Origin: Candidatus Thorarchaeota archaeon
GTDB lineage: Archaea; Asgardarchaeota; Thorarchaeia; Thorarchaeales; Thorarchaeaceae
DNA: 15,271 nt
Direction: 5' to 3'
Assembly: GCA_029858305.1 (NCBI GenBank)
Contig: JAOUFI010000052.1
Location: 1 to 15,271 of the forward strand
Translations under genes and position numbers: made by a program
Notes under the pieces: model-generated
The model's database searches: none
What the model saw: the letters and a program-made list of their open reading frames with translations, nothing else
Told to the model about the DNA's origin: nothing
Shown: positions 11 through 14,266 of the stretch, in pieces
Layout: the number at the start of each line of letters is the position of its first letter
How positions within the stretch are numbered: position 1 is the stretch's first letter

Positions 11-40
11 ACTACCGGCGGCGCCACTTCTTCTCTAGAA
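11..40 (+). repeat. Direct repeat R1: core ACTACCGGCGGCGCCA (11-26) plus tail type A
   Basis: The 16-nt core is identical to 1501-1516. The tail CTTCTTCTCTAGAA matches the tail of R3 (CTCTTTCTTAAGAA) at 10/14. Confidence 0.9.
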
Positions 41-85
41 ATACTAATATCCATGATTCAATATACGTCCAATTGAGGAGTATCT

Positions 86-1441
86 ATGAGGGTTATCGGT
101 GCAATTATTATCCTAATTCTTATTATCAGTCCAGTATCACTCTTTCTTACGTTTTCATCTCAGATGGAGGGGGATTTAGCAGATCAGAGAATAACTCAGA
201 ATGTAGTGATATCGAATCTGATAGATCACGGACCGATAACGATTATTGGGGATAGTGATTTTGAAACTCAGGGTTGGCCAGGTGGCGGAAACAAAACCAG
301 TCCGTATATAATCGAGGGGTTGTCCATAATATCGAATGTCAGTTGTATCAGGATTGAGGACACCTCGGTCAATTTCGTGATTAGGAACTGCACATTCAGT
401 TCGAACAATACAGAAACACCACAGAGAGGCACATCCATTGACCTATACAATGTCACAAACGGAGTAATTGAGAACTGTACAATGTATGGGCAGAGCTGCG
501 CATTTGAGTCAACATATGCAGAACACACCAGCTTCAGAAGAAACACTGTCTATGACTTCAATGGATATGTAATAAATGGAGATTACCTAGTAAACTGTAG
601 CTTCGAAGACAATACAATGTATGACCTAATTGATGATGTCTTTCTAATACATAACGTTGAGAATTGCACCTTTTCGGGCAATCTGATTTATGATATCCAA
701 GAACCGGTTTTCTTACTTAGTGTTTCCAATGGATGTACAATCAGTTCAAACACGATTATGAATATAGAGGGCTACGGTATACTGATGAGCGATGTTGATG
801 AGTGTTTAATAACAGATAACATGATTTTCAATACAACAGGAGGAATTGGCGTAGGTCCAGTAAACAATACAATTGTTGCTAGAAATGTGGTAGAGCACAG
901 TAGAGTACACGAAGGGATTAGTATCTCAAGAGGCGAGAATTGCAATATCGAGGAGAATACTATCAGCGAAAGCAAACACCAGTCACGTTCAATATCTTTG
1001 TATGAGGTTATTGATTCCAGTCTGTACCACAATCTTGTGTTTAACAATACATTCGATGGGGTGTTGCTTCGCAATGTTGATTATTGTAACATAACATACA
1101 ACGAGATTCATGAAAATGGTCGTGTGGGTATTCGTGTAGATGAGAATTGCACAATGAATCGATTCTTTGGTAATGTTCTCTTTGACAATGCAGATAGTAA
1201 TGCGTTAGATGATGGACTTTCAAATCAGTGGGACGATGGTATAAGTATTGGAAACACTTGGGGAGATTATAACGGAATAGGAGTTTATGTAGTCCCTGGA
1301 TCTGCGGGTTCTGTAGACCATTATCCCACGGGAATTACCTCATCAAGCAATGGCACCGACAATCTGGTCTTAGTATATGTAGGAATAATTGGCGGCGTAG
1401 TGATAGTTCTTGCCCTATTGATATATGTCAGAAAACGCTGA
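86..1441 (+). CDS. Membrane-anchored right-handed parallel beta-helix (NosD/CASH-like) cell-surface protein
   Basis: 451 aa with an N-terminal hydrophobic signal and many N-x-I-x-x-N beta-helix repeats. It has an N-cap GWPGGGNKTSPYIIEGL and a C-cap NQWDDGISIGNTW...DHYP, then a C-terminal TM helix and basic tail YVRKR. GAGGAG RBS at 76-81. Confidence 0.85.
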   Translation: MRVIGAIIILILIISPVSLFLTFSSQMEGDLADQRITQNVVISNLIDHGPITIIGDSDFETQGWPGGGNKTSPYIIEGLSIISNVSCIRIEDTSVNFVIRNCTFSSNNTETPQRGTSIDLYNVTNGVIENCTMYGQSCAFESTYAEHTSFRRNTVYDFNGYVINGDYLVNCSFEDNTMYDLIDDVFLIHNVENCTFSGNLIYDIQEPVFLLSVSNGCTISSNTIMNIEGYGILMSDVDECLITDNMIFNTTGGIGVGPVNNTIVARNVVEHSRVHEGISISRGENCNIEENTISESKHQSRSISLYEVIDSSLYHNLVFNNTFDGVLLRNVDYCNITYNEIHENGRVGIRVDENCTMNRFFGNVLFDNADSNALDDGLSNQWDDGISIGNTWGDYNGIGVYVVPGSAGSVDHYPTGITSSSNGTDNLVLVYVGIIGGVVIVLALLIYVRKR

Positions 1442-1500
1442 AACATATCGGAATGAGAACAATGGCCAAAAGGCTTCCATCAGAGGTGGTGGATAGAGCA

Positions 1501-1542
1501 ACTACCGGCGGCGCCATCATTCATTTTTCACTGTAGTTAATT
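1501..1542 (+). repeat. Direct repeat R2: core ACTACCGGCGGCGCCA (1501-1516) plus tail type B
   Basis: The core is identical to R1. The tail TCATTCATTTTTCACTGTAGTTAATT matches the tail of R4 at 22/26. Confidence 0.92.
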
Positions 1543-1547
1543 GCCAA

Positions 1548-3293
1548 TTACTCTATCTTCTTGGCAGGAATCACGAATCCCCCGGAAACGTAGGCAAACT
1601 CGGTTATCTGTCCAGACTCATCCTTCTTGAAAGTAATACTCAGCAGATCCGAGTCCTTTGATTTGAATCTCATCCCCCGTACTGCTTCGAGTTCAATTGC
1701 TTGCTGTCCGGATGGTACACATATAATTGAATTATCCCCCTTTAGCGAGATTTCTACTATCTGCCCAGCGACATCATATTTTCCAAGAAGCGTCGAGAGA
1801 AATCTTTTGTCACTCATATACTTATCAGGAACTCGTCTAACAAGAATAGGTGGAACTGTATCTTCGAGTTTTATCGAGAATCCAATTACTTCACCATTAG
1901 AATCTATTTGAAAGGTGAGAAGATCCTTGAAATCTAATCGTGTTACCTCAAACTGAAATGTATCATAATGATAATGAGTCAGGGGATATTCTATTGTGCC
2001 ATACTTCACTTTGAGCTCTCCATCCACCTCGCGGAAGTTGAATGTTCCGTAGCCTGGATGATTGTATGTCCCTGCATACTCCTGCAGGTCGAACGTGGGT
2101 TTTGTATTAGTCTTTCGTAGCTTTAGGGATTGATCTCCACTTTCCTTTATTACCTTGGTCTGACTATCCTCTAGAGGTTTTAATAATCCATTCCAATCAA
2201 CGGGGTCCAGTCCTAGAATTTTATCAACTAGATGGTACATTGCAGCGACCTGAAGGTAGGAGTTTGATTGGTTCACAATAGCCATGGCTCCAATGTTTTC
2301 ATCTGGCAAGAACGCCATACGACAGGTTGAACCATCGATTCCCCCACTATGGGTAACCACTCTATATCCTCTATACATTACACCCATCCAACCAAGTGCA
2401 TAGGTATTCATACGGAATACTTTCTGTTCCGGGATATACATACTAAGGATGCCTTGAACGGATTCAATAATGACTGGATCATGAGTCATTCTCAGGTTCT
2501 CTGGGGATACAAGCTGCTTGTTGCCAACCATGCCATTGTTAAGATGAAATATTAGCCACTTTCCCATGTCATCAACACTCGCATTAATGCATCCAGCACC
2601 AGTCGCAGAGTCATTTGCAATAAACTCGCACTCAATTATGTCAAATTCCTCTTTCTGATAGTCAATCTTGTATGGTTTTGCGTAATTTGGGGTCTTTTGC
2701 ATGTCAGTCACAGAGAAGTTTGAGTTTTTCATTCCTAAAGGCTTGAAGATTCGCTTTGAAATGAATTCGTTGTAGCTCACTCCCGACAGCTCCTCGATAA
2801 TCACAGAAGCTGCCAGATACATGAGATTGCAGTACTGATACTTCATACGAATGTCTGCACTCAGGTCCAAGTATGGTAATCTATCGAGTATCTGACGGTA
2901 GGTGAATTCATCATTTATCCAAATCATTTCATGTCGGGGTAGGCCAGTTCTGTGTGACAATATATCCACGATTGTGACACGACTAGATGTAACAAAATCC
3001 TTCAGTCTGAACCGTGGAATGAATTCCTGGATTGGTGTGTTCCATTCAAGTTTTCCTTCATCCACAAGCATCGCGATTGCAGTGCTAGTAAATGACTTCG
3101 TACATGATGCAATGGGATGTGTCGTGTCCTTTGTCATCAGAAGCTTATTTGCTACATCACGATAGCCGAAGCCCTTTGAATAAATGACCTCATTATCTTT
3201 GATCGCAATTGCTGCGATCCCCGGAGCTCTCCATAATTCTAGAGTTTCCATTAGATGATTGTCAAATTTCCTAGTATCAACACTTTGCTTCAA
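1548..3293 (-). CDS. Serine hydrolase of the beta-lactamase/penicillin-binding (AmpC-like) family with a C-terminal DUF3471-like region
   Basis: 581 aa with the SxxK motif (ASCTK), LSHRTGL, YxN (YCN) and HSGG. The segment LQEYAGTYNHPGYG...LTHYHYDTF is typical of DUF3471. TTG start preceded by AGGGGA. No signal peptide. Confidence 0.9.
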   Translation of the reverse strand: MKQSVDTRKFDNHLMETLELWRAPGIAAIAIKDNEVIYSKGFGYRDVANKLLMTKDTTHPIASCTKSFTSTAIAMLVDEGKLEWNTPIQEFIPRFRLKDFVTSSRVTIVDILSHRTGLPRHEMIWINDEFTYRQILDRLPYLDLSADIRMKYQYCNLMYLAASVIIEELSGVSYNEFISKRIFKPLGMKNSNFSVTDMQKTPNYAKPYKIDYQKEEFDIIECEFIANDSATGAGCINASVDDMGKWLIFHLNNGMVGNKQLVSPENLRMTHDPVIIESVQGILSMYIPEQKVFRMNTYALGWMGVMYRGYRVVTHSGGIDGSTCRMAFLPDENIGAMAIVNQSNSYLQVAAMYHLVDKILGLDPVDWNGLLKPLEDSQTKVIKESGDQSLKLRKTNTKPTFDLQEYAGTYNHPGYGTFNFREVDGELKVKYGTIEYPLTHYHYDTFQFEVTRLDFKDLLTFQIDSNGEVIGFSIKLEDTVPPILVRRVPDKYMSDKRFLSTLLGKYDVAGQIVEISLKGDNSIICVPSGQQAIELEAVRGMRFKSKDSDLLSITFKKDESGQITEFAYVSGGFVIPAKKIE

Positions 3294-3375
3294 GCTTCAA
3301 TCCCCTTATTCCTTAGAAAACAGAATTCGAATTGTATTATAAATCAATGACAATCATCTATTTGAGTGATTTCTT

Positions 3376-3405
3376 TCTCCCGACGGCGCCACTCTTTCTT
3401 AAGAA
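3376..3405 (+). repeat. Direct repeat R3: core TCTCCCGACGGCGCCA (3376-3391) plus tail type A
   Basis: The 15 nt CTCCCGACGGCGCCA are identical to R4. The tail resembles that of R1. Confidence 0.9.
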
Positions 3406-3462
3406 TCAATCATGAGAGACTGATTGGTGTTGATGATTCTTTCATTTCTAAGTGGGGATTGT

Positions 3463-5121
3463 TCACGTCTTTCTTCTTCGAAGAAGGACAACTGCAAGAA
3501 GAGAAACGACAATTGCCCCTGTAGAAATTAAGATGATTGCATTGCCTGCAATGACTTCAGCGAACGGGCGATACGGCAAGGCATACCTATCGACAGCCAT
3601 CGCATAACCAGGAACAGCATACTCTCCAGGAAAGAGTATCTCAGTCCAATAGTTACCCATACTGACTCCATCATCCCACTGGTTGTTATGACCATTATCC
3701 TCTGCACCCTTGCCATTGTCAATGAAGTAGTTATAGTAGACCTTGTTTTCGTCAGCAGATCCTCCGAGATACAGACCAATAGTATTTCCCTGAATCGTAT
3801 TGTTTGTTATGATGCAACCAGTACTCAAACTTCCAGGACCAGATATTCCATAGTGAAAATTTCTGATAGTATTCAGATGAACAATTGAGCGATTGCTGAG
3901 GTCAATGCCAGCACTATTGGTTAATCCAGTTCCAATCAATGTGTTGTTGTAGATATAACAATTAACTCCACTATTCACAATGCCATAAGATCCGACCTGT
4001 GCGATGGTATTATGCGAAACCTCGGCATCGTTTCTTCTAGTGTCAATGTAAATACTCCCATTAATGATGTCATTATATGAAATCCTTGCAGATTCTCCCT
4101 TAGCAGTAACGCTGGTGTTGAAAAAGTGGCAGTTGGATATGGTACCATTCTCTACAAACGTTATTCTTGCTGTGGTAAAGTCAGTGAACGTGCAATTCTT
4201 GACAAAAGCGTTCCATGCAGTCTGAAAATCAGGTTCTCCCCCAATATGAAAAATCGGAGGACGATGTATTGAGGGAAATTCTCGTTCAAATGTACAATCA
4301 AGGACCTTTGTATTGTTGCTGCGGACAACCCTGAAGGCCATATCACTGTCCGATGTGAAACTGTTATTCTTTACGAAGAAGTCGGTGCAATATCGAGCAA
4401 ACAATGCCGTACTTGCGCGCCCCCCGCGGATTTCATTGTCCTCTAAATAGATACTCTCACATCTCTCAAGCCATATGTGGTATCCGAGTTCTCCAGTGTT
4501 TCCAAGTGGGTCGCAGAGAAATAGATTGGTATTGATATCGATGTTAGAAGAATAGGATATTTTCAGTCCTTGGGCATAATATAGCTCAATTCTAGAATCC
4601 GCAATTGTGCAATCATTAGAATTTTCTACCATGACCGCGGATTCGCTGCAATTCCATACTCTGCAGTTTTCAATGGTGATGGGTATCGCATCTGCTGCTA
4701 TACCCACAGAGCAGTTCAAGACATCACAGTCCTCAACTTGTGCAATTCCGCTTTGCAGAGAAATTCCAGCATATTCAAGCCAAGGTCCTCGACTACCAGA
4801 AACCATGCAATTGCGGATTGTGTAATAAATGCCCGGGCATCCAGTAATCCTAATACAGGAAGAATCCCATGCTTCATGACCAACTGATGTGATTGATAGG
4901 TCTTCTATTAGAAACGGAGCGCTCTCAGATCCACTGCCATTAAAGCCCAAGCTTATGAAATCGCTAGGAGAGGATATGAGAATCTGTGGATGAGGAACTC
5001 TAATCTGATTTGATGATGCGAAAAATGCATCTGGTCTATTGTTGAATGTCTTCGCATTGAATCCATTGGTCACAAGCATGATTAAGAGGAGCATGATTGT
5101 GAGTAATTGCTTGGATGCCAT
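3463..5121 (-). CDS. Membrane-anchored right-handed parallel beta-helix (NosD-like) surface protein, divergent paralog of 86..1441
   Basis: Same architecture as 86..1441: signal peptide, GFNGSGSESAPFLIEDL N-cap, beta-helix repeats, NQWDDGVSMGNYW...DRY C-cap, TM helix and RRRKT tail. The ORF is open to 5199, but ATG 5121 (MASKQLL) follows GGAGG and puts the signal peptide at the N-terminus. Confidence 0.85.
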   Translation of the reverse strand: MASKQLLTIMLLLIMLVTNGFNAKTFNNRPDAFFASSNQIRVPHPQILISSPSDFISLGFNGSGSESAPFLIEDLSITSVGHEAWDSSCIRITGCPGIYYTIRNCMVSGSRGPWLEYAGISLQSGIAQVEDCDVLNCSVGIAADAIPITIENCRVWNCSESAVMVENSNDCTIADSRIELYYAQGLKISYSSNIDINTNLFLCDPLGNTGELGYHIWLERCESIYLEDNEIRGGRASTALFARYCTDFFVKNNSFTSDSDMAFRVVRSNNTKVLDCTFEREFPSIHRPPIFHIGGEPDFQTAWNAFVKNCTFTDFTTARITFVENGTISNCHFFNTSVTAKGESARISYNDIINGSIYIDTRRNDAEVSHNTIAQVGSYGIVNSGVNCYIYNNTLIGTGLTNSAGIDLSNRSIVHLNTIRNFHYGISGPGSLSTGCIITNNTIQGNTIGLYLGGSADENKVYYNYFIDNGKGAEDNGHNNQWDDGVSMGNYWTEILFPGEYAVPGYAMAVDRYALPYRPFAEVIAGNAIILISTGAIVVSLLAVVLLRRRKT

Positions 5122-5290
5122 TTGCCCACTCGCCTCCGACCAGCAGATGACCTTCTTTATAGAAAAATCTTCTGGATTCGTTGGCTTTCGTTTTCTCATA
5201 TCAGAACTCTACTGGTGCTTCTTTTCTCCTGTGGAAAACCTCATTTGATTTCTGGTACTTTGTATTAGTGATAGCTGGGTGTGAAGAAAA

Positions 5291-5914
5291 TTGAGAGGCG
5301 AAACAAGCATTTCAGATTTGAGAGCGAATGGATTTTACATAGACGAGAAATGCGATGAAATTAATGAAGTACTTAGAAAGAATCCTGAGTATGCGGAGTA
5401 TGAAGTAAGACGCCAACACATAGGAGATGATTGGACCCTCGACCCATACATCATTCAAGATGAAGGTAAAGCTGAGCTGATGCTACTCGCGCCGGAGGAA
5501 GTCAATACTCTAAACGATTCCGAACTCCTTGCCTATATTGATGTGCAAATGAAACGTCTGGACTGTTCAGAGAATTACGCTCTCTTCTTACTGGCTACAC
5601 TGGTACTGGCTCCTACATCAGCGATCAACTCACTAATGGTGATAGTCTATCAATCGACCATAGACATCGCATGAGCATTAGCAACTACATTCGTACTTGT
5701 TTTTCTCACCCTTCTTTCTGGAGCTATGTACTATACAAGACGAAAAACCATGAGGACTAATAGGCGCCAAGTCGATTTGGAAGCTGCTGGGGAGAATTCG
5801 ATATTTCTTTCGGCTTTGCAAAAATTAGCGGCTTTGTCTGATAACAGTGAGTGGAAAGACCAAGAGAATAGAAAAAGACTGCAATACATCAAAAATAGAC
5901 TTGAGAGCATGTAA
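5291..5914 (+). pseudogene. Two-TM hypothetical membrane protein interrupted by an in-frame TGA at 5672-5674
   Basis: ORFs 5291..5674 and 5726..5914 are in the same frame. The 17 intervening codons (ALATTFVLVFLTLLSGA) are open and form a TM helix followed by basic residues (YYTRRK). Confidence 0.75.
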
Positions 5915-5955
5915 CTCCCGACGGCGCCATCACTCATTTTTCACTATTGGTAATT
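5914..5955 (+). repeat. Direct repeat R4: core ACTCCCGACGGCGCCA (5914-5929) plus tail type B
   Basis: The core matches R3 and the tail matches R2 (22/26). Its first base is the last base of the upstream TAA stop. Confidence 0.92.
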
Positions 5956-6045
5956 TCTTATATTGGGTGATGAGGGTGTAATCTTTCTTAAAAAGACTAA
6001 AAGGTTAAGACTAAAGTTGAATATTCCAACAAGCGGTAGTTATCC

Positions 6046-6444
6046 ATGCAATTAGAATCTATGATTCTATATTATTCATTGAATATTGCAGGACTTATTG
6101 GTCAAATATTGTCACTATTGGTATTGATAGCACTTCTCCGCCCTCTGAAAGGATCGATGCGAAGCATCGTATACGCTCTGGGTTCAGCAATCTCATTCTT
6201 TATTGGCAGTTTTTATTTGGCTTTCGTAGCAATCTTTCAATATCTCGCTTCGCCTGCAGCCAATATCCATCTTAGCCTACCACTATCATCCATCACAATT
6301 ACAGTTGGATGGCATAATATTCTTGGAGTTGTCTGTGGTTACCTGCTACTCATCATCGCTATAGTCCAATACAGGAAAGATCATACAAAGCAACTATCAG
6401 TGAATCCACTTGAATCCAATGAATCCTCCTTTTCTTTAGGTTGA
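6046..6444 (+). CDS. Hypothetical integral membrane protein (about 3 TM segments)
   Basis: 132 aa with three long hydrophobic stretches and a polar C-terminal tail. Confidence 0.7.
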   Translation: MQLESMILYYSLNIAGLIGQILSLLVLIALLRPLKGSMRSIVYALGSAISFFIGSFYLAFVAIFQYLASPAANIHLSLPLSSITITVGWHNILGVVCGYLLLIIAIVQYRKDHTKQLSVNPLESNESSFSLG

Positions 6445-6504
6445 GGGAACTGACAGATGAGAAAGAGGGTACAGCCAGAATTTTCAGATATCGACAAGTC
6501 CCTA

Positions 6505-7752
6505 TCATGGAGAATACCGATAATCGAATACATTGTCTAACCAGTCAAACATCACCTGCTGACCGCGAGATATATTGTCAAGCTGACAATGGTCATATGA
6601 ACCATCCTGTTCTAGGGTAAAGACATGAAGCATCTTGTTTTTCGAGCCAATTCTCTGCATGAATGCCCTCGCTTGCTCGAGCATGGCTTCACCTTCGTGC
6701 ATACTAACCAATGCAAGAGTGGGACATGTAATCTTGTGTACTTCTTCGGTGATGATGCTGTCCAGTTTTGGCTTCCAATCCATCCATTCAATGAAATTCG
6801 GACAGCCCCACGACCAGATGCCATAGTAGACAAGACCCCTCAACACCGGAGTGTTCTTCAACTTCTTCTCTATAGCTTTTTCCAGAAGACGGCTCGGCAT
6901 GGCTCTAAACATACGACTCATCTGACTGCTCCTTTGTAGCGCAGGTATGTCTATGAGTGGACTGTCAGCTATTAGAGCTTTAATTCTTGATTCGCCTGTG
7001 GTGACTTGAGAGGCAACATAGCCGCCATAACTATACCCTGAGAGTGCAATTCGTTCATCGACTTCAGGAAGACTTCCCAGCAGTTCGAGAGCTGCAGCGA
7101 AGGGAGCAGAATAGTTCGATCGCTTCACACAATCTGAGTAGAGATGAACTGCTCCGCGATGACCAGGATAATCGAATGTGAAGAAGTTATAGCCTCTACG
7201 CACTGCCGAGAATCCAACAGCTATCAGTATCTCCTCAGCAGAGGAATCGTTCCCACCTACTGCAAACATTGTGGGCCTCGTCAAGTCGGAGTCATCCGGG
7301 CGCATGAAGTAGCCGGGGAGCATCTTTCCCTCGTATGGAACCTCTAGTATCCGAATCTCCGGATTAAATAATGAACACGCTTTTCTGAAGGCATCAACAC
7401 TCCGACGCCAAGTTTCATGAAAACGGTGATGACTTGGAGTACATGCGTACTCAGCAGTTCTCCAGTAGTTTGAAGCTCGGAGAAATGCCTCTCTAGCACT
7501 TATTATATGCTGATCTCTCAGAGACTCATCACCAAGAGCCTCCACACGTTCTGCGAGAGCTGCCCACTCAGATATCCAGCTATCACCATCTTTTTCATCT
7601 ATTCGGCGAGCAGCATAGAGGCATTCTCCAATTTCTGCAGCCTTTTCGCTCATGAACTCTAGAGTCCGGTTGAATGCCCAATCGGTTTCTGGATCCTTGA
7701 ATATGCCAATACTTCTTGGTGCTCTCGCCAAGTCTAGTTTTAGTCGAGCCAT
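6505..7752 (-). CDS. Alpha/beta hydrolase (FrsA / 2,6-dihydropseudooxynicotine-hydrolase-like esterase-peptidase)
   Basis: Nucleophile elbow GYSYG, RASNYWRTAEY, VPYEGKMLPGY and a C-terminal DHCQ catalytic His. The ORF-track GTG start at 7782 lies inside an operator palindrome, so ATG 7752 (MARLK) is preferred. Confidence 0.85.
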   Translation of the reverse strand: MARLKLDLARAPRSIGIFKDPETDWAFNRTLEFMSEKAAEIGECLYAARRIDEKDGDSWISEWAALAERVEALGDESLRDQHIISAREAFLRASNYWRTAEYACTPSHHRFHETWRRSVDAFRKACSLFNPEIRILEVPYEGKMLPGYFMRPDDSDLTRPTMFAVGGNDSSAEEILIAVGFSAVRRGYNFFTFDYPGHRGAVHLYSDCVKRSNYSAPFAAALELLGSLPEVDERIALSGYSYGGYVASQVTTGESRIKALIADSPLIDIPALQRSSQMSRMFRAMPSRLLEKAIEKKLKNTPVLRGLVYYGIWSWGCPNFIEWMDWKPKLDSIITEEVHKITCPTLALVSMHEGEAMLEQARAFMQRIGSKNKMLHVFTLEQDGSYDHCQLDNISRGQQVMFDWLDNVFDYRYSP

Positions 7753-7767
7753 ATTGTGCACCACGAG

Positions 7768-7812
7768 GTGAGCAATGCTCACTTATATGTTAGTGAGCAA
7801 AACTCACTTATA
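7768..7812. promoter_or_regulatory. Two tandem palindromic operators with adjacent TATA-like boxes in a divergent promoter, probably bound by the adjacent TetR
   Basis: GTGAGCA-A-TGCTCAC (7768-7782, perfect 7-1-7) and AGTGAG-CAAAA-CTCACT (7792-7808, 6-5-6) lie 25 bp apart, and each runs into TTATA. Confidence 0.85.
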
Positions 7813-7835
7813 GATGTATCTTTCAGAGTATACGT

Positions 7836-8435
7836 ATGACTCGTCCTCAACAACGTAACAAGGCCGCAAAGATTGAAGCTATTCTTCAGACTGCCATGAT
7901 ACTCTTCAGAACACGAGGGTATCCTGCCACCACAACCAACCAGATAGCAGCAGAGGCAGGAGTGAGTATCGGTCTTCTCTATAAGTACTTCCCGGGCGGC
8001 AAACCTGAGATCGCCAGAAGAACTGTTGAAAATATCGGAGAGGTGATCGTTTCAGAGGAGTTTAGTGATGTGACAATCGAAGATGCTTCAGTTGTTCTAC
8101 GTAGGGCATTGCTTAGGTTCATCAAAGGGCACAGACAGATTTCACCAAACCTTGCTGCCTTTGAAATAGCTTCCTTTGAAGATCCTAAAACTGAAGAGAT
8201 GGGAAATCAACTATATACGATTGGTCAAGAGCCGATATTGATGGTACTAGAGAAACTTACTGGACAAAAGAGGACTGGTAATCTTGAGAAATGGGCTAAC
8301 GTTATCTTTCATGTGATTGATTCTGTTACCCACAGGCATGTATTACATGGGGGACTAATGATGTCTGATGAGATGTTGGCAGATTTTCTAGTCCAAATCA
8401 TAGTAAGAAGCATCCCGGCGGTAATAGGAGAATGA
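7836..8435 (+). CDS. TetR/AcrR family transcriptional regulator
   Basis: N-terminal HTH signature ILQTAMILFRTRGYPATTTNQIAAEAGVSIGLLYKYFPGGK; 199 aa. Confidence 0.95.
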   Translation: MTRPQQRNKAAKIEAILQTAMILFRTRGYPATTTNQIAAEAGVSIGLLYKYFPGGKPEIARRTVENIGEVIVSEEFSDVTIEDASVVLRRALLRFIKGHRQISPNLAAFEIASFEDPKTEEMGNQLYTIGQEPILMVLEKLTGQKRTGNLEKWANVIFHVIDSVTHRHVLHGGLMMSDEMLADFLVQIIVRSIPAVIGE

Positions 8436-8511
8436 ATCCCCTGAGAAACGAACACGTGAAACGAGTGCAATATGTTGAAAATGCACTGACAGGGACTTAT
8501 TCATAGAAAAA

Positions 8512-8820
8512 CTACTTCACAGGTGCCTTTCTATCGACACGCAATTTCTTATCCTCTTCATACTTCTCGATGAATTTCTGCTGGATATTAAAGTAGCTCG
8601 CCTCATAGACCTGATAGTTGTTATCCGAATCAAATCCCCACCCATCCCAATCAACAATCAACTGCATTATTTTGTCATATATCTCTATAATCTCAGGATA
8701 TGGGCACCGTATGTCTAGATTCCCATCTTGAATTGCATCTTCGTACTCTTTTGCCATTTTTTGAGCTCTTTCATGCAGAACATTGATTTCGTCGAAGGGA
8801 TCAGGTTTCGTTCCATTCAT
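8512..8820 (-). CDS. Small acidic helical hypothetical protein
   Basis: 102-aa ORF filling the gap between tetR and the aldo/keto reductase. No recognised motif. Confidence 0.6.
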   Translation of the reverse strand: MNGTKPDPFDEINVLHERAQKMAKEYEDAIQDGNLDIRCPYPEIIEIYDKIMQLIVDWDGWGFDSDNNYQVYEASYFNIQQKFIEKYEEDKKLRVDRKAPVK

Positions 8821-8899
8821 CTTTGTTCAGTACCAGCTAATTCTCTAACTACTCATTAGTCACATCTGGGTAGCTAATAGTCTTTCAAAATCAATAATG

Positions 8900-9778
8900 T
8901 CATTTATAGTCACTTGTACTAGATGCTATTGTCTTCATATCAAACTCATCAACCATAGCATGCATTTCTGCATTAGAAGGGGTTTTATCATAACGAAGGG
9001 CAGCATCCAACATCTTGGGTAAAAGCCGAATGTCGCCTGCTGTAATCAGAAAACTATCCTTAAGACTCAATGACCAATGGACCGACTTGTCAATCGCATT
9101 TTGATTCTCTAATGGTTCATAGAAGTAGGTGTTGTAAGTCGGTGGACGTTGACCCCAGGGCTGCCGAACAATGGACTGTATAGTCTGCACTGCTACCCTA
9201 CGCTTGCGGCAAAGCTCCACTAAATCATTGAAGTATGCCGCGTAACGAGATTTCTGCATCTGCAAATAGTTGTATGGTAGCATGACTGAATCGAATTCAA
9301 ATCGTTCCAAACTTTGTTTGTGCATTGCTGGTACGTTATCACCATGGCCTGTCACTCCTAGAAATCGTACTAGACCCTTGTCACGTGCTTCAATAAAGGC
9401 CTCCAAAGCCCCTCCGGGACCCATCACTCTTTGCCAACCTACTGGATTAGTCAACCCATGCATCTGCCAAAGGTCAATATAATCAACTCCCATGATGCTC
9501 AAAGATTTCTCCAAATCATCCTTTGCTCCTTCGTATGATCGCTTGCGCGACTTTGTTGCAAGGAAAAAATCACCACGATGTTTTTTCATCCACAATCCAA
9601 TGCATTTCTCAGCATTTCCGTACATGGGAGCTGTATCAATATGATTCACACCATATTTCAGCAATATTTTAAGAACATGATCTGCTTCAGTCTGTGTCGC
9701 GTTATTCAATGCATACGACCCAAAGATAACACGCGTGCTAGCATGTTTCGTACGACCAAAAGAGTTTAGGGGTATCAT
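8900..9778 (-). CDS. Aldo/keto reductase
   Basis: GVNHIDTAPMYG (catalytic Asp/Tyr), FLATK (Lys), DYIDLWQMH (His) and GLVRFLGVTGH. GGAGG upstream on the minus strand. Confidence 0.95.
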   Translation of the reverse strand: MIPLNSFGRTKHASTRVIFGSYALNNATQTEADHVLKILLKYGVNHIDTAPMYGNAEKCIGLWMKKHRGDFFLATKSRKRSYEGAKDDLEKSLSIMGVDYIDLWQMHGLTNPVGWQRVMGPGGALEAFIEARDKGLVRFLGVTGHGDNVPAMHKQSLERFEFDSVMLPYNYLQMQKSRYAAYFNDLVELCRKRRVAVQTIQSIVRQPWGQRPPTYNTYFYEPLENQNAIDKSVHWSLSLKDSFLITAGDIRLLPKMLDAALRYDKTPSNAEMHAMVDEFDMKTIASSTSDYK

Positions 9779-9917
9779 CTATCACTGCCTCCATGACCTA
9801 TGAGCGGCCTGTGCGATATGTACAGCCTATTAATTATGGGTGTTTCACTCGAAGCAATCGAGTGCGAGAAGTACATGAAAAGCGGATTTTTTCAGAAACA
9901 ACAACACTGAACTTGAT

Positions 9918-10619
9918 CTACTCTGGAATATCAACAAGTGGTTGCAGGCTCGAATCAGGATTTCTGCAGGTATAGGTCATGTTTAAGCTGGAATCAAGAG
10001 GATCATACTCGACAATCTTATCGTCAAGATTCTTGATTCTCCGGCAGATGCCAATAACATCATGCGGTTCGAAACCAAGTGTTTCAGCTACCAAAAGTAA
10101 GTCGGTTCTGTGTCGTTTCCTAACAATATCCCTTACAAGTTGCTCCCAACGCGTCTTGAACGACAATCGAAGGCTTGACAAAGCAACGAAATCAAGTAAC
10201 CAAGTATTTGCAGGGTTCCCAAGGGGGGTCGGTTCACCATCTCGTTTCCCATTTAGAGTAGGCATCTTGACTTTTCGAGACGCCCTGATACCTGCGACGA
10301 ATCCACTTGTTCCAGAAATTTTGGCATACCAATCGGGGTCCCGAGTCTGATGTGCACTGCTATCAATACTTAGATAACCTTCATCCTTCCAGAATGGCAC
10401 TGAAAACTCAGGATCCTCCTTCCATCGTTCCCATTTGACATAACGAGACTCGTCAAGATTTCGCATTCTCTCCCGTGCTTTTTCCGCATCTGGAACGAGT
10501 ATACTGTTTGAAAGTCCAATAAGTAACCTTTCAGCAATGCCTTCCTTTCCCGATAGAAGCTCTTCCTCTGCCTTCTTCAAAGCACCCTCCGCTCGCCTAA
10601 TGACGTCAGGATAGCTCAT
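9918..10619 (-). CDS. Hypothetical protein, possibly with a C-terminal winged-helix-like region
   Basis: Long ORF open to 10640; ATG 10619 follows GGTGGTG. The C-terminal segment TDLLLVAETLGFEPHDVIGICRRI is HTH-like (weak inference). Confidence 0.65.
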   Translation of the reverse strand: MSYPDVIRRAEGALKKAEEELLSGKEGIAERLLIGLSNSILVPDAEKARERMRNLDESRYVKWERWKEDPEFSVPFWKDEGYLSIDSSAHQTRDPDWYAKISGTSGFVAGIRASRKVKMPTLNGKRDGEPTPLGNPANTWLLDFVALSSLRLSFKTRWEQLVRDIVRKRHRTDLLLVAETLGFEPHDVIGICRRIKNLDDKIVEYDPLDSSLNMTYTCRNPDSSLQPLVDIPE

Positions 10620-10748
10620 AGACACCACCGCCAAAAACATCTAATGATACATCTCCGGAGGACCAAATAAGATTGGTGCTACTCCCCTAAGACAGTAAGA
10701 TTGGGAAATGGGTACTTATCAGAAGCTTATCGTGAAACACCATAAGAA

Positions 10749-11621
10749 TTATAGCATTCTTTCAAGCAAAGTCAGAGCCCACTCCTCATCTTCATTTTCA
10801 TCCAGCTGAACCCAGTCTAGATTGTGCATAGTTTCTACATAATCTGTTTCGAAGGCCACGAAGATAGAGGTACATCCACTCTTCGAGGCTATGTCTATAT
10901 GATACGACAGATGATCTAGGAACCCTGTCCTATCAGAAGCGTAGATTGTGAAAGACCATTGCATCCCAGAACTGACATCACGGGCGAATCCCAATGAGAA
11001 CGATGTGAGCTTACCAGCACGCGTCTGAACCCAAAACCGTGCAGTCGAACCTATTTTGTTAAGACCCTTTGGCGTGACATCGAATGCCTTCCAGTCGTGG
11101 ATGAGGATGTTGAATGGAATCAAGTTGGCATCAATTAGATCTTGACACACCTCATCCGCAGAAACCTCAAGTAGTGGGAAACCTCTCATCCGCCAAGAGA
11201 TTTCAGATGGGTTCTCCTGCCAATGAACAGCAAGGTCGAATTTTCTCTTCATTCCTACTACTTCAGCAAGATGCAATGATGTTTCATTACCTACTGAAGT
11301 TGTATATCGAATGCACTTTACTGGAATGCTCTTTGCAAGCTGAACAACATACTGGGTCAGGCTAGTTGCAAGTCCCTTTCCTCGATGATTTGGATGTACT
11401 CGAAGAGCCTCCATCCATCCAGTTTTTCCATCATCGATTACTCGTAGATTAGCTAGGGCAATAATATGACCGTCATACTCAACACCCACAGGATAGGAGT
11501 TCTTGTCTTTCAGCCAAGTGTCAAAATAGTAGGGGATATAGTCATGTCCCTCCCATGTGTGCCGTGCAATTTCAAGAATGTCATCCTTATCTGATTCTCT
11601 AAGCGGTCGTATATCGTTCAT
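10749..11621 (-). CDS. GNAT family N-acetyltransferase with a C-terminal extension
   Basis: N-terminal IRPLRESD and the acetyl-CoA motif A LRVHPNHRGKGLAT. Start placed at ATG 11621 (ORF open to 11705). Confidence 0.9.
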   Translation of the reverse strand: MNDIRPLRESDKDDILEIARHTWEGHDYIPYYFDTWLKDKNSYPVGVEYDGHIIALANLRVIDDGKTGWMEALRVHPNHRGKGLATSLTQYVVQLAKSIPVKCIRYTTSVGNETSLHLAEVVGMKRKFDLAVHWQENPSEISWRMRGFPLLEVSADEVCQDLIDANLIPFNILIHDWKAFDVTPKGLNKIGSTARFWVQTRAGKLTSFSLGFARDVSSGMQWSFTIYASDRTGFLDHLSYHIDIASKSGCTSIFVAFETDYVETMHNLDWVQLDENEDEEWALTLLERML

Positions 11622-11720
11622 TCGGAAGACCTGGATGAAGGATATTTCTTTCAGAGATTTGAAGTAAGTGATACGAACCCAAAAGTCTGCGTCCCTAGAG
11701 CTCAAACTTAATTTTTCATA

Positions 11721-12092
11721 CTAATCCCCTGTAGGAGTCACATCCTTTCCCTCAACCATCAAGATTGCAGTGCGTACCGGAGCTCTTGTACGATGGGATA
11801 GTCCTAGTGGCACTAGGAACCCTTGCCCAGGCTTCAAATCTACCGTTCTGTCCCCTAAATCGATGTGTAATAGACCAGCAATGACATAGAAGAACTCATC
11901 CTCGTGGTCATGCTTGTGCCAATGAAATTCACCGTGTATTACTCCTAATCGGATTACGCAGTTGTTTACCTCACAGAGGGAGAAGTTCTGCCAGTCCTTT
12001 TGACATTCTTCAATCAATCTGGGGATATCTATCAGCTCGAGAGCCTCAAATTTGATATCGGTATCAATTGAATAGCGATTCTGGTTATCCAT
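11721..12092 (-). CDS. Cupin domain protein
   Basis: Cupin motif 1 GEFHWHKHDHEDEFFYVIAG and motif 2 PGQGFLVPLGLSHRT. Confidence 0.92.
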   Translation of the reverse strand: MDNQNRYSIDTDIKFEALELIDIPRLIEECQKDWQNFSLCEVNNCVIRLGVIHGEFHWHKHDHEDEFFYVIAGLLHIDLGDRTVDLKPGQGFLVPLGLSHRTRAPVRTAILMVEGKDVTPTGD

Positions 12093-12115
12093 TTTGAAGA
12101 CTCCTATATTATGAA

Positions 12116-12565
12116 TTACTTCTTTCGTAGACGCAAGAGGCGAGGTCCGTATTTTGCCGCGACCAGAATGATGACGAGGACAATGATTGCTCCAGTAATT
12201 AAGGTACCCACACCTTCGGCAATAAATACGACCTGAGTACTGGTCCGATGCACTACTCCAAGATTGTCGATTCCTACTAATGTGATATTAGTTGGTCCTC
12301 CAAGATATTCTCCGGTATTGAACAGCCAACTGACACTATTACCAGTGACGAAGTGGACCTCATTCTCATTGAAGTAAACAGTCAGGTTCTGGATTGAATC
12401 CGGGCCATTCCCCTCTAGTAGAAAGCTCCCACTGATATAATTACCAAACGCCATTCCAAAGGACCGATTGATGGAGAGCGAGAGCGTGTCTTGTGCAAGC
12501 ACATTCATTGGTATGAGAGATGAAAGTGTAATTCCAATCAATATGGTAAGAGCAACTCTCCGCAT
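12116..12565 (-). CDS. Small secreted, membrane-anchored protein with a beta-rich (Ig-like?) domain
   Basis: Signal peptide MRRVALTILIG...VLA, a beta-strand-rich middle, a C-terminal TM helix and basic tail. Start uncertain (12565 or 12595). Confidence 0.7.
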   Translation of the reverse strand: MRRVALTILIGITLSSLIPMNVLAQDTLSLSINRSFGMAFGNYISGSFLLEGNGPDSIQNLTVYFNENEVHFVTGNSVSWLFNTGEYLGGPTNITLVGIDNLGVVHRTSTQVVFIAEGVGTLITGAIIVLVIILVAAKYGPRLLRLRKK

Positions 12566-12670
12566 CACGTGCAAGTTCTTGGAGTGTGCTATCACGTCAA
12601 TAGATACCTCAACACCCCGCTCAGAATGAGTGATAGAAAAATTGTGTGGTGTGAGTTTGATTGAATCGGA

Positions 12671-12946
12671 TTATTTTTCGATAGGTTTTCGAGAGATTTT
12701 GTAGACGACTTGATGATTATAGTCACTGCAACCGACTGTCATGTAATCACTTCCATCCTCAGACTCCGTAAAGCTACCTCCTGACTCCATCACCATTATC
12801 CATGGGTAGAGAATATGGAATGAGCTTGGGCACATCTTGCCTCGATCTTCTGGATAATCGTAGGTGTCGCCAATTTTTTGCCCCATCGAACACTTGCCCT
12901 GATTCAGAATATCGATTACCTCAATTCTTACTTTATATCTTGCCAT
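12671..12946 (-). CDS. TIGR04076-like small Cys-containing protein
   Basis: Pattern YKVRIEV...GKCSMGQKIGD...MCP...GCSD...VVYKISR. Start MARYK at 12946 (ORF open to 12958). Confidence 0.75.
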   Translation of the reverse strand: MARYKVRIEVIDILNQGKCSMGQKIGDTYDYPEDRGKMCPSSFHILYPWIMVMESGGSFTESEDGSDYMTVGCSDYNHQVVYKISRKPIEK

Positions 12947-13057
12947 TAGTTCCACCAACAGAATATTGGCTGTAACAGCAATCTAGTATTAGAAACAACT
13001 TTTCCAAGCAATACTCAGACAAGCAATACTGAAAACGGACGAGTACAAGCTGCAGGC

Positions 13058-13666
13058 ATGGCCTCCAATAAATCTGACCATGTATCAATGGCCGTCTGGT
13101 GTACGTTAATACCACCTGAAGAATTAGATAGATTCTCTAAGAACGAGGATGGCCTACGAAGTGTGAGTGAAGCGTATGAGGATTGGTTAGTGTCCATGAG
13201 GGGAAAGTCCTTCGTTGGAGCGGATGTGGGCATAATGTTGGATCGGATTCGTATTCTTATGATAAACATAGGAATAGCTTGTGCGACTAATCGTGAATTA
13301 GCTGAAGAGGTACAAGAGGTTGTTTCCGACCATCTACGAAGACGGAGTCTTTCAATGGTGGATAGACTTCCAAATGATACTATTGAGAAAGTTGCTGTCA
13401 AAGAAACATTAGCAATATTCTTCCGTGACCTCAAATTCACACGGGACATATTTCCCGAGGAGGATGTAAAGGGGATTATCCCTGTAAAGGTGTCCATTAC
13501 GCCAGATTCTTCCAAGGGTCATCTTGGTCGGCTTGTGGGGTCAAAATCAAAAACAGCTAATGTTGAGAAGGGGCAAGTACTCAAAGCAGCATTGCTAGAG
13601 AGCTCAAATGTCCTGAAAAAGCTCTATATGCGCCTTCTTAGTCCAGATCCCTGGGGAACATACTAG
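13058..13666 (+). CDS. Hypothetical alpha-helical protein
   Basis: 202-aa ORF with protein-like composition, divergent from the upstream gene and convergent with the phosphoesterase. No recognised family. Confidence 0.75.
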   Translation: MASNKSDHVSMAVWCTLIPPEELDRFSKNEDGLRSVSEAYEDWLVSMRGKSFVGADVGIMLDRIRILMINIGIACATNRELAEEVQEVVSDHLRRRSLSMVDRLPNDTIEKVAVKETLAIFFRDLKFTRDIFPEEDVKGIIPVKVSITPDSSKGHLGRLVGSKSKTANVEKGQVLKAALLESSNVLKKLYMRLLSPDPWGTY

Positions 13667-13687
13667 GATGGTCGTCGGCGAGTATAC

Positions 13688-14266
13688 TCAGGATATTCTT
13701 TTGATTCTCTCTTTTTGCTTCTGATACTCAACTTCAGTTCTTTTCACAACCCGCCAATCAGTAGAATGAAGGATCACACACATTTGGTTATCATTCACAA
13801 TTAGCTCGATGAAGCTTGCATTTGTACGACCACCTGCGCCTCCTGTTGCACCTGTTATTGTTCCCGGATTAAGAAAGAGTCTGTCTTTATAGAGGTCAAT
13901 AGTAGCTTGGTGAGTGTGCCCATGGATTGCTATATCCCCTCCGATGTGCTGGAGAATCTCCCAGAGTTGTTCTATATTCCCACGGGGACTGAGTTGCGTT
14001 CCATGTAGTAGAAGGATATTGAAGCTGTCGACTTGTACCTGCTCGTGAAAATTGTATGAACTTCCAAAATCCATATTTCCTGTGACAATAAAACATCTTG
14101 GGAGAGGAGGAAGAGCTGCTCTCATGTCTGACTCTCGTACAAGGTCGCCAGTGATGAGAGCCATATCATATTGGGAGTCATTGATGTATTGATAGAAGTC
14201 ATCAGGTATTGCATCTCTACGGGAAGGAATGTGCATGTCCCCAAGGACAAGAACTCTGTATGGCAT
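13688..14266 (-). CDS. Metallophosphoesterase, YfcE/MJ0936/Vps29 family
   Basis: Motifs GDMH, GD, GNMD, HG, GHTH and NPG. Its start overlaps the upstream stop (TGATG). Confidence 0.92.
   Translation of the reverse strand: MPYRVLVLGDMHIPSRRDAIPDDFYQYINDSQYDMALITGDLVRESDMRAALPPLPRCFIVTGNMDFGSSYNFHEQVQVDSFNILLLHGTQLSPRGNIEQLWEILQHIGGDIAIHGHTHQATIDLYKDRLFLNPGTITGATGGAGGRTNASFIELIVNDNQMCVILHSTDWRVVKRTEVEYQKQKERIKRIS

Follow-up and report, generated by a model that had tools for sequence, protein, structure and literature searches.

What leaves behind four short direct repeats in which two left halves and two right tails occur in every possible combination? The question is raised by a stretch of 15,271 nucleotides from a Candidatus Thorarchaeota archaeon (contig JAOUFI010000052.1), referred to below as the window. 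It contains four direct copies of CTMCCGRCGGCGCCA, all on the + strand (12-26, 1502-1516, 3377-3391 and 5915-5929; Table 1). The right-hand part of the motif, CGGCGCCA, is present exactly four times and on the + strand only (19-26, 1509-1516, 3384-3391 and 5922-5929), against 0.10 expected occurrences, and none of 200 shuffles reached four. Searches with the 15-mer CYMCCGRCGGCGCCA gave zero-mismatch matches at the same four sites and, with up to three mismatches, a single additional match in the window (2780-2794, within a coding region). The left half reads CTACCGG (X) in R1 and R2 and CTCCCGA (Y) in R3 and R4. Tail A follows R1 (CTTCTTCTCTAGAA) and R3 (CTCTTTCTTAAGAA), identical at 10 of 14 positions. 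R2 and R4 share tail B (TCAYTCATTTTTCACT...TAATT), and their 43-nt units (family D2) are 86% identical. The mosaic described in an earlier note on this DNA, with the combinations XA, XB, YA and YB, is therefore confirmed in the sequence. With a weight matrix derived from 31 copies of other genomes, the four sites reach 31-41 bits, compared with at most 8 bits for the rest of the window and 15.9 bits for the best of 50 shuffles. No hairpins were found at the four repeats, whose DNA folds gave z = +1.1 to -1.6.

Table 1. Repeats, cassettes and flanking regions of the window
Feature	Position	Strand	Description
R1	12..40	+	X allele CTACCGGCGGCGCCA (12-26) and tail A (27-40); 40.8 bits
Cassette 1	27..1501	+	One gene, 86-1441 (+)
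R2	1502..1544	+	X allele (1502-1516) and tail B
Cassette 2	1517..3376	-	One gene, 1548-3293 (-); orthologue in L048
R3	3377..3405	+	Y allele CTCCCGACGGCGCCA (3377-3391) and tail A
Cassette 3	3392..5914		Two genes
Beta-helix/NosD-like gene, cassette 3	3463-5199	-	
Small two-helix membrane protein gene (family F2), cassette 3	5291-5914	+	
R4	5915..5961	+	Y allele (5915-5929) and tail B; last recognisable copy in the window
Distal variable region	5962..11720		Without recognisable copies
Conserved hotspot flank	11721..15271		Starts 46 nt after tRNA-Asn in L070

The repeat as the 3' end of tRNA-Asn(GTT)

Comparison with related genomes identifies the repeats, at the level of sequence, as copies of the last 15 bases of the archaeal (Thorarchaeota) tRNA-Asn(GTT) gene, a point overlooked in the earlier note. 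The 15 nt correspond to positions 62-76 of the tRNA, CCA included, in the orientation of the tRNA, and comprise the 3' strand of the T-stem, the 3' strand of the acceptor stem, the discriminator and CCA. In two relatives (L050 and L042), the tRNA-Asn(GTT) gene located by ARAGORN ends exactly on the motif. Further, in a spliced alignment, 11 tRNA-Asn genes matched at 72-76 of 76 positions, all ending in the motif. X is the tRNA-Asn end in five of the 11 related genomes and Y is that of L048, the closest relative of the window, in which the opposite stem strands compensate for Y (5' acceptor strand GCCGTCG, T-stem GGAGG). These genes show X and Y to be two naturally occurring alleles of the tRNA that differ at base-paired stem positions. 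The base preceding CTN is C in all 11 tRNAs and in none of 18 non-tRNA copies, which sets a sharp left edge of the repeat at position 61/62.

The window itself holds no tRNA gene (0 by ARAGORN, 0 Rfam matches). It begins 11 nt before R1, and R1 has no tRNA body, its 24 of 76 matches to the tRNA being noise. An intact tRNA is present at the proximal end of the array in relatives L048, L050, L010, L040 and L018, and by comparison with L048 the tRNA-Asn gene should sit just beyond the start of the window.

A variable locus downstream of tRNA-Asn

A single scan of species representatives, using a pattern in which a pyrimidine tail was obligatory, returned 73 loci, 17 of which (on 15 contigs) were from Thorarchaeota or other Asgard archaea. 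In these 15 contigs the copies are arrayed downstream of tRNA-Asn between conserved flanks, and 10 of them carry 2-5 perfect copies each. An empty site is found in L070, a complete chromosome with the order ZIP, F9, tRNA-Asn, 46 nt, cupin block, whereas in the window the cupin block lies more than 11.7 kb from R1. The last of three repeats in L046 abuts the cupin gene, and in L015 and L018 the tRNA and part of the array point in opposite directions. These comparisons identify a conserved hypervariable locus of Thorarchaeota, ranging from 46 nt (empty) to more than 11 kb, at which single genes for hydrolases, peptidases, methyltransferases and beta-helix surface proteins appear to be gained, lost and reordered at a 15-nt site. 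A 12-nt core is perfect in 35 copies despite the divergence of the intergenic surroundings. Six copies with one mismatch were observed versus 0.2 expected, and seven with two mismatches are intergenic and have pyrimidine tails. Distal copies are decaying, the degenerate ones lying mostly further from the tRNA.

Intervals between neighbouring copies range from 319 to 2523 nt, and 24 of the 28 contain one ORF. Homology of cassettes across genomes ends at the repeats, and the neighbours differ on either side. Cassettes F13 and F17 are 86% and 85.5% identical between genomes, respectively, and the homology of the Zn cassette spans 398-747 versus repeat cores at 401 and 736. F13, F17, F16 and Zn all have different neighbours in different genomes, and the order deduced from the maps is cyclic (F13<F20<F33<F16<F13) among genomes that are ~15% diverged.

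Could the motif instead be a cis element that is under selection and involves no recombination, for example a terminator, a signal for processing or a spare 3' exon of an intron-split tRNA-Asn? Its T/C-rich tail resembles archaeal tRNA trailers, many + strand cassette genes end 0-11 nt before a copy, and five of the 11 tRNA-Asn genes have an intron at 59/60 that leaves a 17-nt 3' exon nearly equal to the repeat. However, cassette genes are found on either strand (20 +, 17 -) whereas the copies keep the orientation of the tRNA, and the copies include the trailer, which is absent from mature tRNA. Further, the left flanks are unrelated, which leaves no bulge-helix-bulge partner and no conserved fold, and breakpoints of synteny fall on the copies. 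Such an element is highly improbable.

The earlier note had proposed that the repeats are cassette ends and recombination breakpoints, and the halting of cassette homology at the repeats agrees with this. Left halves and tails did not co-segregate in the larger set either (CTA occurs with CT/TC tails 5/6 times, CTC with the same tails 2/2 times), so that the outcome named in the note as refuting it was not seen. Its proposal of strand exchange is correct in outline. L048 is 80-84% identical to the window, with homology beginning at R2, and its tRNA-Asn lies 397 nt upstream of its own copy. R2 is orthologous to the second L048 copy, which has a different upstream cassette and a Y left half together with the same tail B and downstream gene; this difference fits an exchange inside the 15-nt segment. 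The CTN variant of the same cassette differs between genomes, so that the data do not fix the exchange point to CGGCGCCA rather than to the variable CTNCCGR part. The tails were suggested to be possible recombinase-binding arms, which is not supported; tail B is the tRNA trailer of the lineage, found in L048, and tail A the family-wide trailer consensus CTTCTTC, found after most copies. Tail A is nonetheless distinct from random AT-rich DNA: each of the first six positions (CTTCTT) is conserved in 9-10 of 11 non-tRNA copies that depart from the scan pattern and come from other genomes.

From one genome to another, a left flank stays with its upstream cassette and a tail with its downstream one. 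The mosaic repeat could thereby become a readable record of insertions, in which the left half would point to a tRNA-Asn allele and the tail to the downstream cassette. It should, however, be noted that tail B (22-30 nt) precedes three contexts, namely the Zn cassette in L048, the hydrolase cassette and the region of the 132-aa ORF, a misfit to the simple rule that a tail belongs to its downstream cassette.

Origin of the junctions

The four repeats are probably att-type junctions that arose from successive insertions of small cassettes at the 3' end of tRNA-Asn. Each consists of a copy of the last 15 nt of tRNA-Asn(GTT) and a pyrimidine-rich trailer, and the window would represent the distal part of the array with three cassettes. 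Insertion and shuffling would be carried out by a site-specific recombinase encoded elsewhere, most plausibly a tyrosine integrase of an element targeting tRNA-Asn, and the cassettes, which carry no recombinase, would act like cis-mobilizable units. The mosaic may have originated when cassettes with X and tail A recombined, inside the 15 nt, with resident sites composed of Y and trailer B, an exchange that would place X-B to the right of the insert.

Searches at thresholds of E<=0.01, 0.001, 0.001 and 1e-6 found no member of the integrase, resolvase or transposase families among 195 ORFs, 19 of them from the window and 176 from within 10 kb of the copies at 15 Asgard loci, and PHROGs and NCBIfam gave no recombinase among the ORFs scanned. 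Nor was a circular element, or one bearing attP, seen. Since none of the 195 ORFs matched such a family, the enzyme is purely one that we infer. As in a tRNA-targeted array, the repeat is the 3' end of the tRNA, and the same flanks enclose an empty site in one relative; a recombinase encoded on or beside the inserted DNA is missing from the 195 ORFs. Two other identities were considered and rejected. An SSV-type split integrase does not match the ORFs beside the copies, which encode beta-helix, hydrolase and membrane proteins without int-like matches. For the primer-binding site of an LTR-retroelement, the copies are in the tRNA sense and arrayed beside the tRNA gene, and there is no RT or LTR.

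The same array and junctions could also have formed with no dedicated recombinase, by short-homology recombination or replication slippage between copies of 15-45 nt, through which cassettes are looped out, lost, re-inserted and reordered. The empty recombinase search is in keeping with this, as are the shared stretch of ~45 nt (15 nt and trailer B) in the lineage of the window and an exchange point that appears variable, the CTN variants not being cassette-bound. However, the left edge of identity is sharp at 61/62 in 18 of 24 non-tRNA copies, as expected of a fixed cleavage site and not of homology-driven exchange, and foreign DNA arriving beside the tRNA for the first time must itself bring an att-like site. 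Further, 12-15 nt is very short for homologous recombination. This account is unlikely.

Another account holds that a few large integrated viruses or plasmids decayed by deletion and left the repeats behind as inert scars, and that the cassettes were never mobile. Degenerate copies are present, the genes are those of ordinary metabolism and surface proteins, and the only matches to viral families are of beta-lactamase-fold and beta-helix domains to phage tail-protein families. Tandem integration followed by loss of the integrase is also reported for archaeal elements in passages of a review (PMC8371274). Decay of this kind is nevertheless hard to reconcile with nearly every gene being flanked singly, in intervals as short as 319 nt, with the differing neighbours and conflicting orders of F13, F17, F16 and Zn at ~15% divergence, or with a 12-nt core kept perfect amid diverged surroundings, and we consider it decidedly unlikely.

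The insertion of cassettes at tRNA-Asn has precedents. McMurdie et al. 2011 (PMC3146451) describe ssrA islands of Dehalococcoides in tandem downstream of one small-RNA gene, 16 with a serine-recombinase integration module and 15 without, the latter suggested to be cis-mobilizable elements, a term used here in the sense of that paper. Both systems have units delimited by direct repeats of the gene's 3' end (20 bp there, 15 nt and trailer here), an insertion point in the T-loop/T-stem region and a region hypervariable between strains. The Dehalococcoides islands are, however, multi-gene, whereas the units here measure 0.3-2.5 kb and mostly hold one gene, without a recombinase in cassettes or flanks, in an Asgard archaeon and with tRNA-Asn as target. 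Like cis-mobilizable elements and att accretion, the cassettes are att-flanked units without a recombination function that could move in trans. The original work on such elements was done in Streptococcus; they are described for bacterial ICE/IME families and are larger, and mobility in the present case is something that we infer.

Passages of the review on archaeal tRNA-targeting elements (PMC8371274) describe tandem insertions at a single locus and integrase genes that are lost once integration has taken place, and cite She et al. 2001 for 'gene capture'. SSV-type and pNOB8-type elements, with tyrosine integrases, insert at tRNA genes and duplicate the 3' part of the gene as a direct repeat, as seen here. 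They span kb to tens of kb with replication or virion genes and int fragments, in contrast to the cassettes here, which have none. To our knowledge, no arrays of single-gene units have been described for them. Sugahara et al. 2012 (PMC3293823) report a tRNA gene of Caldiarchaeum disrupted by integration of a mobile element. That case is similar in the displacement of a tRNA fragment by a 1.8-kb insert and in the link between integration and tRNA introns, but it concerns a 5' fragment and a recombinase-encoding insertion, whereas here copies of the 3' end form an array with no recombinase.

Collectively, the array represents a known kind of integration scar in an unusually integron-like layout. 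As in integrons, mostly single-gene cassettes lie between recombination sites and are shared and reordered across genomes, and copies decay mostly away from the tRNA-proximal end. Archaeal integrons have reportedly been found by Ghaly and colleagues (2022). A strict integron, with attC-bounded cassettes beside an IntI gene, would account for the single-gene array. However, the window and the 15 related loci contain no IntI tyrosine recombinase, nor do the 195 ORFs include any tyrosine recombinase, and attI and Pc are missing here. An attC identity was rejected: the site is derived from a tRNA and conserved in sequence, lacks the imperfect inverted repeats that characterise attC, and shows neither a dyad nor folding (the z values given above). 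The cassette genes are not co-oriented and have room for promoters of their own (14-180 nt upstream). The probability of a strict integron is close to nil.

More tentatively, the locus may be an integron-like platform of Thorarchaeota for gene capture at tRNA-Asn, which we regard as possible though doubtful. A ~24-nt site (the last 15 nt of the tRNA and the CTTCTTC trailer) would then serve as attC and the tRNA gene as attI, and a recombinase encoded at another genomic location or by a helper element would insert, excise and reorder single-gene cassettes, many of which would carry bacterial-type enzymes and surface proteins. Such a platform, based on a tRNA end instead of a folded attC, would offer genes a concrete way into Asgard archaea; should the cassettes turn out to move in trans, the locus would be a cassette system independent of attC folding. 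Asgard genomes are noted for many acquired genes, and a defined acquisition site with a simple signature makes this influx testable.

Genes of the window

Cassette 1 encodes a right-handed beta-helix/NosD-like protein with a hydrophobic C-terminal end, and cassette 2 a beta-lactamase-fold serine hydrolase with DUF3471; a true beta-lactamase was rejected, the scores being far under the cut-offs. The orthologue of R3 in L048 keeps 14 of the 15 bases and the 19 nt immediately to the left (34 identical columns), with a diverged tail, and the 47 nt of R4 match the L048 copy at 91.5% identity. L048 has no counterpart of the stretch 5053-9921, which runs from within cassette 3 to where the 240-aa ORF ends. 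The distal variable region encodes a 132-aa ORF, an alpha/beta hydrolase, TetR, a 102-aa ORF, an aldo-keto reductase, the 240-aa ORF and GNAT, genes that are missing from the empty-site genome L070. The conserved flank contains genes for a cupin, a TIGR04076-family protein, a 202-aa ORF, a metallophosphoesterase and a MutS-domain ATPase. Finally, the stop codon of the F2 gene in cassette 3 abuts R4, and an in-frame TGA at 5672-5674 splits this gene.

Identity of the repeated motif

The window holds four direct copies (R1-R4) of a 15-nt motif. Its invariant part, CGGCGCCA, is present four times where 0.10 would be expected, a number reached in none of 200 shuffles. No further credible match to the 15-mer was found in the window at up to three mismatches, nor did a weight-matrix scan of 5930-11720 find degenerate copies above 8 bits. 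The earlier note had described the copies as mosaics, in which two left halves, X (CTACCGG) and Y (CTCCCGA), are joined in all four combinations to two right tails, A and B, and this observation stands as made. Tail A is modestly similar between R1 and R3 (10/14), R2 and R4 with tail B are 86% identical over 43-nt units, and an alignment of the flanks of the four sites confines conservation to the core and the tails. A hairpin or attC-like structure was dismissed, as DNA folds of the four sites were no better than those of shuffles (z +1.1 to -1.6). The window contains no Rfam family and no tRNA.

A species-representative genome collection was scanned once with both variable positions free and a pyrimidine-rich tail required. 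The scan returned 73 loci, none of them from the window's own source genome, namely 53 bacterial, 3 from other archaea and 17 of Asgard type. The bacterial and other archaeal loci mostly have one copy each, which by our own estimate is close to what chance would yield when 596 Gb are searched with a GC-rich pattern of 24 nt. The 17 loci, on 15 contigs, come from Thorarchaeota, 'Promethearchaeota' or archaea with genes common to the window, and 10 of the 15 contigs contain two to five perfect copies of the 12-nt core.

In one of these loci (L050), ARAGORN places a tRNA-Asn(GTT) at 5106-5181 that ends exactly on the motif, as does a tRNA-Asn(GTT) on an Archaeoglobaceae contig. With the intron option, genes ending at the motif were also called in L010, L040, L044, L070 and L071. 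Since ARAGORN miscalls the anticodon at non-canonical introns, a spliced alignment was relied on instead, in which the intronless L050 tRNA was compared with the DNA upstream of every copy and long gaps were allowed. The copies fall into two cleanly separate classes: 11 tRNA-Asn ends, which match at 72-76 of 76 positions and are interrupted by 0-4 introns of 28-33 nt each, and 24 others, all four window copies included, with 24-62 matches (noise range 47-62). This split identifies the 15 nt as tRNA positions 62-76, comprising four T-stem bases (3' strand), the acceptor 3' strand, the discriminator G and CCA, within a site of ~24 nt that reads CTNCCGGCGGCGCCA followed by CTTCTTC. The left edge of the identity is sharp: the base before CTN is C in 11 of 11 tRNAs and is never the tRNA's C in the 18 non-tRNA copies that keep CTN.

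A degenerate or intron-split tRNA ending at R1 or R2 was also considered. Their 24 and 58 of 76 matches, against 72-76 in the real genes, fall in the noise, and searches of the window for a tRNA 5' end and a T-arm gave nothing meaningful. A retroelement primer-binding site is ruled out by the orientation, the position beside a tRNA gene and the lack of a reverse transcriptase. The window, probably the whole contig, starts 11 nt before R1, so that neither the tRNA gene nor any additional cassette is in view; an assembly that broke at a repeated sequence would start in this way.

Halves, tails and the homology break

X (in full CTAC-CGGCGGC-G-CCA) is the tRNA-Asn end in five of the 11 genes (L016, L044, L049, L050 and L071), and Y (CTCC-CGACGGC-G-CCA) in one, that of L048, the closest relative of the window (80-84% nucleotide identity, ~8.5 kb collinear). 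There the partner strands are altered to match Y (T-stem GGAGG, 5' acceptor GCCGTCG). X and Y are thus two natural tRNA alleles whose differences fall at base-paired positions and do not reflect random drift. For ~22 nt, tail B equals the trailer of the tRNA-Asn gene in L048, and it recurs, over ~30 nt, after the second L048 copy and after R2 and R4. Tail A is the family-wide trailer consensus: among 11 non-tRNA copies of other genomes that fall outside the scan pattern, tail positions 1-6 read CTTCTT in 9-10 of 11 each. Tail B lies ahead of three different contexts, which a simple rule that the tail goes with the downstream cassette fails to explain, and the shared stretch, hence the exchange zone, may reach ~30 nt into the trailer in this lineage.

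When the same cassette was compared pairwise between genomes with 400 nt of flank on each side, homology began and ended at the copies and the neighbours differed (see table). Similarly, when the junctions of gene families F13, F16 and F2 are lined up, the left flank follows the upstream cassette and the tail the downstream one. Gene-family maps give conflicting cassette orders between genomes, which form a cycle (F13<F20<F33<F16<F13), so that differential loss alone does not explain the arrays.

Repeat copies and conserved block in the window, and extents of homology between cassettes of related loci
Feature	Location	Position (nt)	Strand	Remarks
R1	window	12-26	+	15-nt motif, X, tail A
R2	window	1502-1516	+	15-nt motif, X, tail B
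R3	window	3377-3391	+	15-nt motif, Y, tail A
R4	window	5915-5929	+	15-nt motif, Y, tail B
Conserved 3'-side block	window	11721-15271
Zinc-ribbon (Zn) cassette	L015 vs L018	homology 398-747		cores at 401, 736
F13 cassette	L012 vs L018	homology 400-1317		86% identity
F17 cassette	L015 vs L018	homology 385-2518		85.5% identity
F16 cassette	L039 vs L050			homology stops at right copy

The site orthologous to R2 is the most instructive. L048 has the zinc-ribbon cassette, Y and tail B at this site, the window has cassette 1 (the beta-helix gene between R1 and R2) and X, and tail B and the downstream gene are common to both. As upstream DNA and left half differ and tail and gene are the same, the homology break falls within the 15 nt. 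If X/A-type DNA entered a resident Y-B site, X-B would be left on the right side, which is R2; R1 (X-A) would then be internal and join two X-type cassettes, and R3 (Y-A-like) and R4 (Y-B) are junctions of the resident type. R3 is older than the split of the window and L048. The earlier note had placed strand exchange within or next to CGGCGCCA. A break inside the 15 nt agrees with this in substance. The CTN base varies between genomes within one cassette (Zn CTA/CTC, F16 CTC/CTA, F17 CTC/CTG), so that the strands may cross in CGGCGCCA or equally in CTNCCGR as an overlap region. The interpretation in the note is upheld in part: the copies are cassette recombination junctions, their origin as a tRNA end had been missed, and the tails are at most putative recombinase-binding arms.

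Cassettes and the tRNA-Asn locus across relatives

Perfect copies, and intergenic copies with at most two mismatches and a pyrimidine tail, delimit 29 intervals between neighbouring copies, or 28 once L015 4825-10004 (a chance match inside an ORF) is dropped. These span 319-2523 nt. One ORF of 60 aa or more occupies 24 of the 28 and two ORFs occupy three, of which the one in L004 is further divided by a copy lost to the tail filter; window cassette 3 (R3-R4) has two genes and a spurious antisense ORF. Cassette genes lie in both orientations (20 +, 17 -), and many on the + strand have their stop 0-11 nt before a copy, for example F2 at R4. Copies with one mismatch number 6 against 0.2 expected and those with two mismatches 10 against 4.35, seven of the latter being intergenic with the right tail and mostly away from the tRNA. 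This distribution is the pattern of old junctions decaying, the proximal ones being intact.

Locus maps of gene families and Pfam names place the arrays in a conserved frame, with a ZIP transporter and small conserved ORFs on the tRNA 5' side and a cupin, a TIGR04076-family protein, a ~200-aa ORF, a metallophosphoesterase and a MutS-domain ATPase on the 3' side; the flanks consist of housekeeping genes, among them those for ProRS, a NOG1-type GTPase, RtcA and QRPTase. On the complete chromosome of L070 the cupin gene follows 46 nt after the tRNA, which marks an empty site. L046 has three copies bounding two complete cassettes, the last copy abutting the cupin and a third cassette being cut by the contig start, and in the window the distance from R1 to the cupin is at least 11.7 kb. 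L048 runs from tRNA-Asn through the 0.4-kb zinc-ribbon cassette, a copy, the hydrolase gene of window cassette 2 and another copy to a beta-helix gene; this last copy, orthologous to R3, has one changed base and adjoins the same beta-helix gene as in the window.

Other rearrangements are seen around the locus. F9, a 159-165-aa ORF (window 12116-12595, -; L070 9292-9789, +), is upstream of the tRNA in L070 and L010, also occurs in L018, and is on the far side of the array in opposite orientation in the window and L048; its displacement is another rearrangement around the hotspot. L018 has an inverted core copy (9770-9781, -) ~90 nt upstream of its tRNA gene, and its tRNA and two cassettes (10004-11463) run opposite to the conserved flanks. 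The L015 tRNA (copy 11290-11301) is likewise inverted, relative to the array copies at 5026-10021. Both arrangements look like inversion between inverted site copies.

Window 5053-9921 (~4.9 kb; beta-helix N-terminus, F2, R4, a 132-aa ORF, a hydrolase, TetR, a 102-aa ORF and an aldo-keto reductase) is unmatched in L048 (6217-6474), and its left boundary is inside a gene with no copy there. The aldo-keto reductase lies near the array in L004, and the segment was therefore probably lost in L048. Within it, the gene for the small membrane protein F2 (5291-5914, +) has one in-frame TGA at 5672-5674, and both halves are collinear with homologues that are intact in L050, L015 and L010; a pseudogene, a sequencing error or read-through could account for it. 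Between the divergently oriented genes for the alpha/beta hydrolase (6505-7782, -) and TetR (7836-8435, +) are two tandem 20-nt units (7768-7787 and 7793-7812) with the palindrome GTGAGCA-N-TGCTCAC, probably TetR operator sites. At R3, 34 alignment columns (3358-3391) are identical with L048: 19 nt to the left (CTATTTGAGTGATTTCTTT), one preceding base and the first 14 of the 15 copy bases, the last base being different. The surrounding intergenic DNA is much more diverged, and the identical stretch may belong to the promoter region that serves the hydrolase gene (- strand, start 84 nt away).

Recombinase search and comparison with described systems

Among 195 ORFs (19 in the window, 176 from the 15 loci), none matched integrase, resolvase or transposase families, part of this search having been run at a stricter 1e-6, at which divergent enzymes could be missed; PHROGs and NCBIfam added nothing on recombinases. 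F1 (13058-13666, conserved flank) and F2 were set aside as recombinase candidates, both being blank in Pfam, PHROGs and NCBIfam; in a protein atlas, F1 had no usable match and F2 matched only clusters that were unnamed or weak. Any enzyme involved acts in trans, and short-homology recombination instead of an enzyme is a live rival. The boldest surviving reading, put forward tentatively, is a tRNA-anchored, integron-like cassette platform of Asgard archaea with its recombinase encoded elsewhere.

Among the described systems compared, the nearest is the tandem ssrA islands of Dehalococcoides, in which insertion maps to the T-loop and 15 islands without an integration module were suggested to be cis-mobilizable (PMC3146451). 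A review of archaeal tyrosine recombinases reports that elements may integrate in tandem at a single locus and that the integrase gene may be lost afterwards (PMC8371274). The Thorarchaeota array is set apart by units of mostly one gene, down to 0.3 kb, by the absence of recombinase genes from all 15 loci, and by an arrangement conserved across a whole Asgard lineage. It is not an integron, as it is without IntI, folded attC and co-oriented cassettes. The aloposons of Heimdallarchaeum are large giant-gene elements integrated at tRNA sites, with unrelated content. Within the limited coverage of the full-text literature, such arrays in Thorarchaeota or Asgard archaea are not described, which leaves novelty unproven, and a search of two Asgard virus and mobilome papers gave nothing on tRNA-Asn integration.

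In Caldiarchaeum, the integration of elements has been proposed to be linked to tRNA introns (PMC3293823). Thorarchaeota tRNA-Asn genes (L048 ~10406-10600, -; L049 ~1690-1896; L010, L015, L016, L018, L040, L044, L070 and L071) have introns at positions 22/23, 28/29, 37/38, 43/44, 50/51 and 59/60, with four each in L048 and L049, and ARAGORN overlooks such genes or miscalls their anticodon. The T-loop intron at ~59/60, present in five of 11 genes (L015, L016, L018, L048 and L049), leaves a 17-nt 3' exon (CCCTNCCGRCGGCGCCA), only 2 nt longer than the repeat unit, and its position thus coincides with the left edge of att identity, be it by coincidence, as protection against integration or as a by-product of integration.
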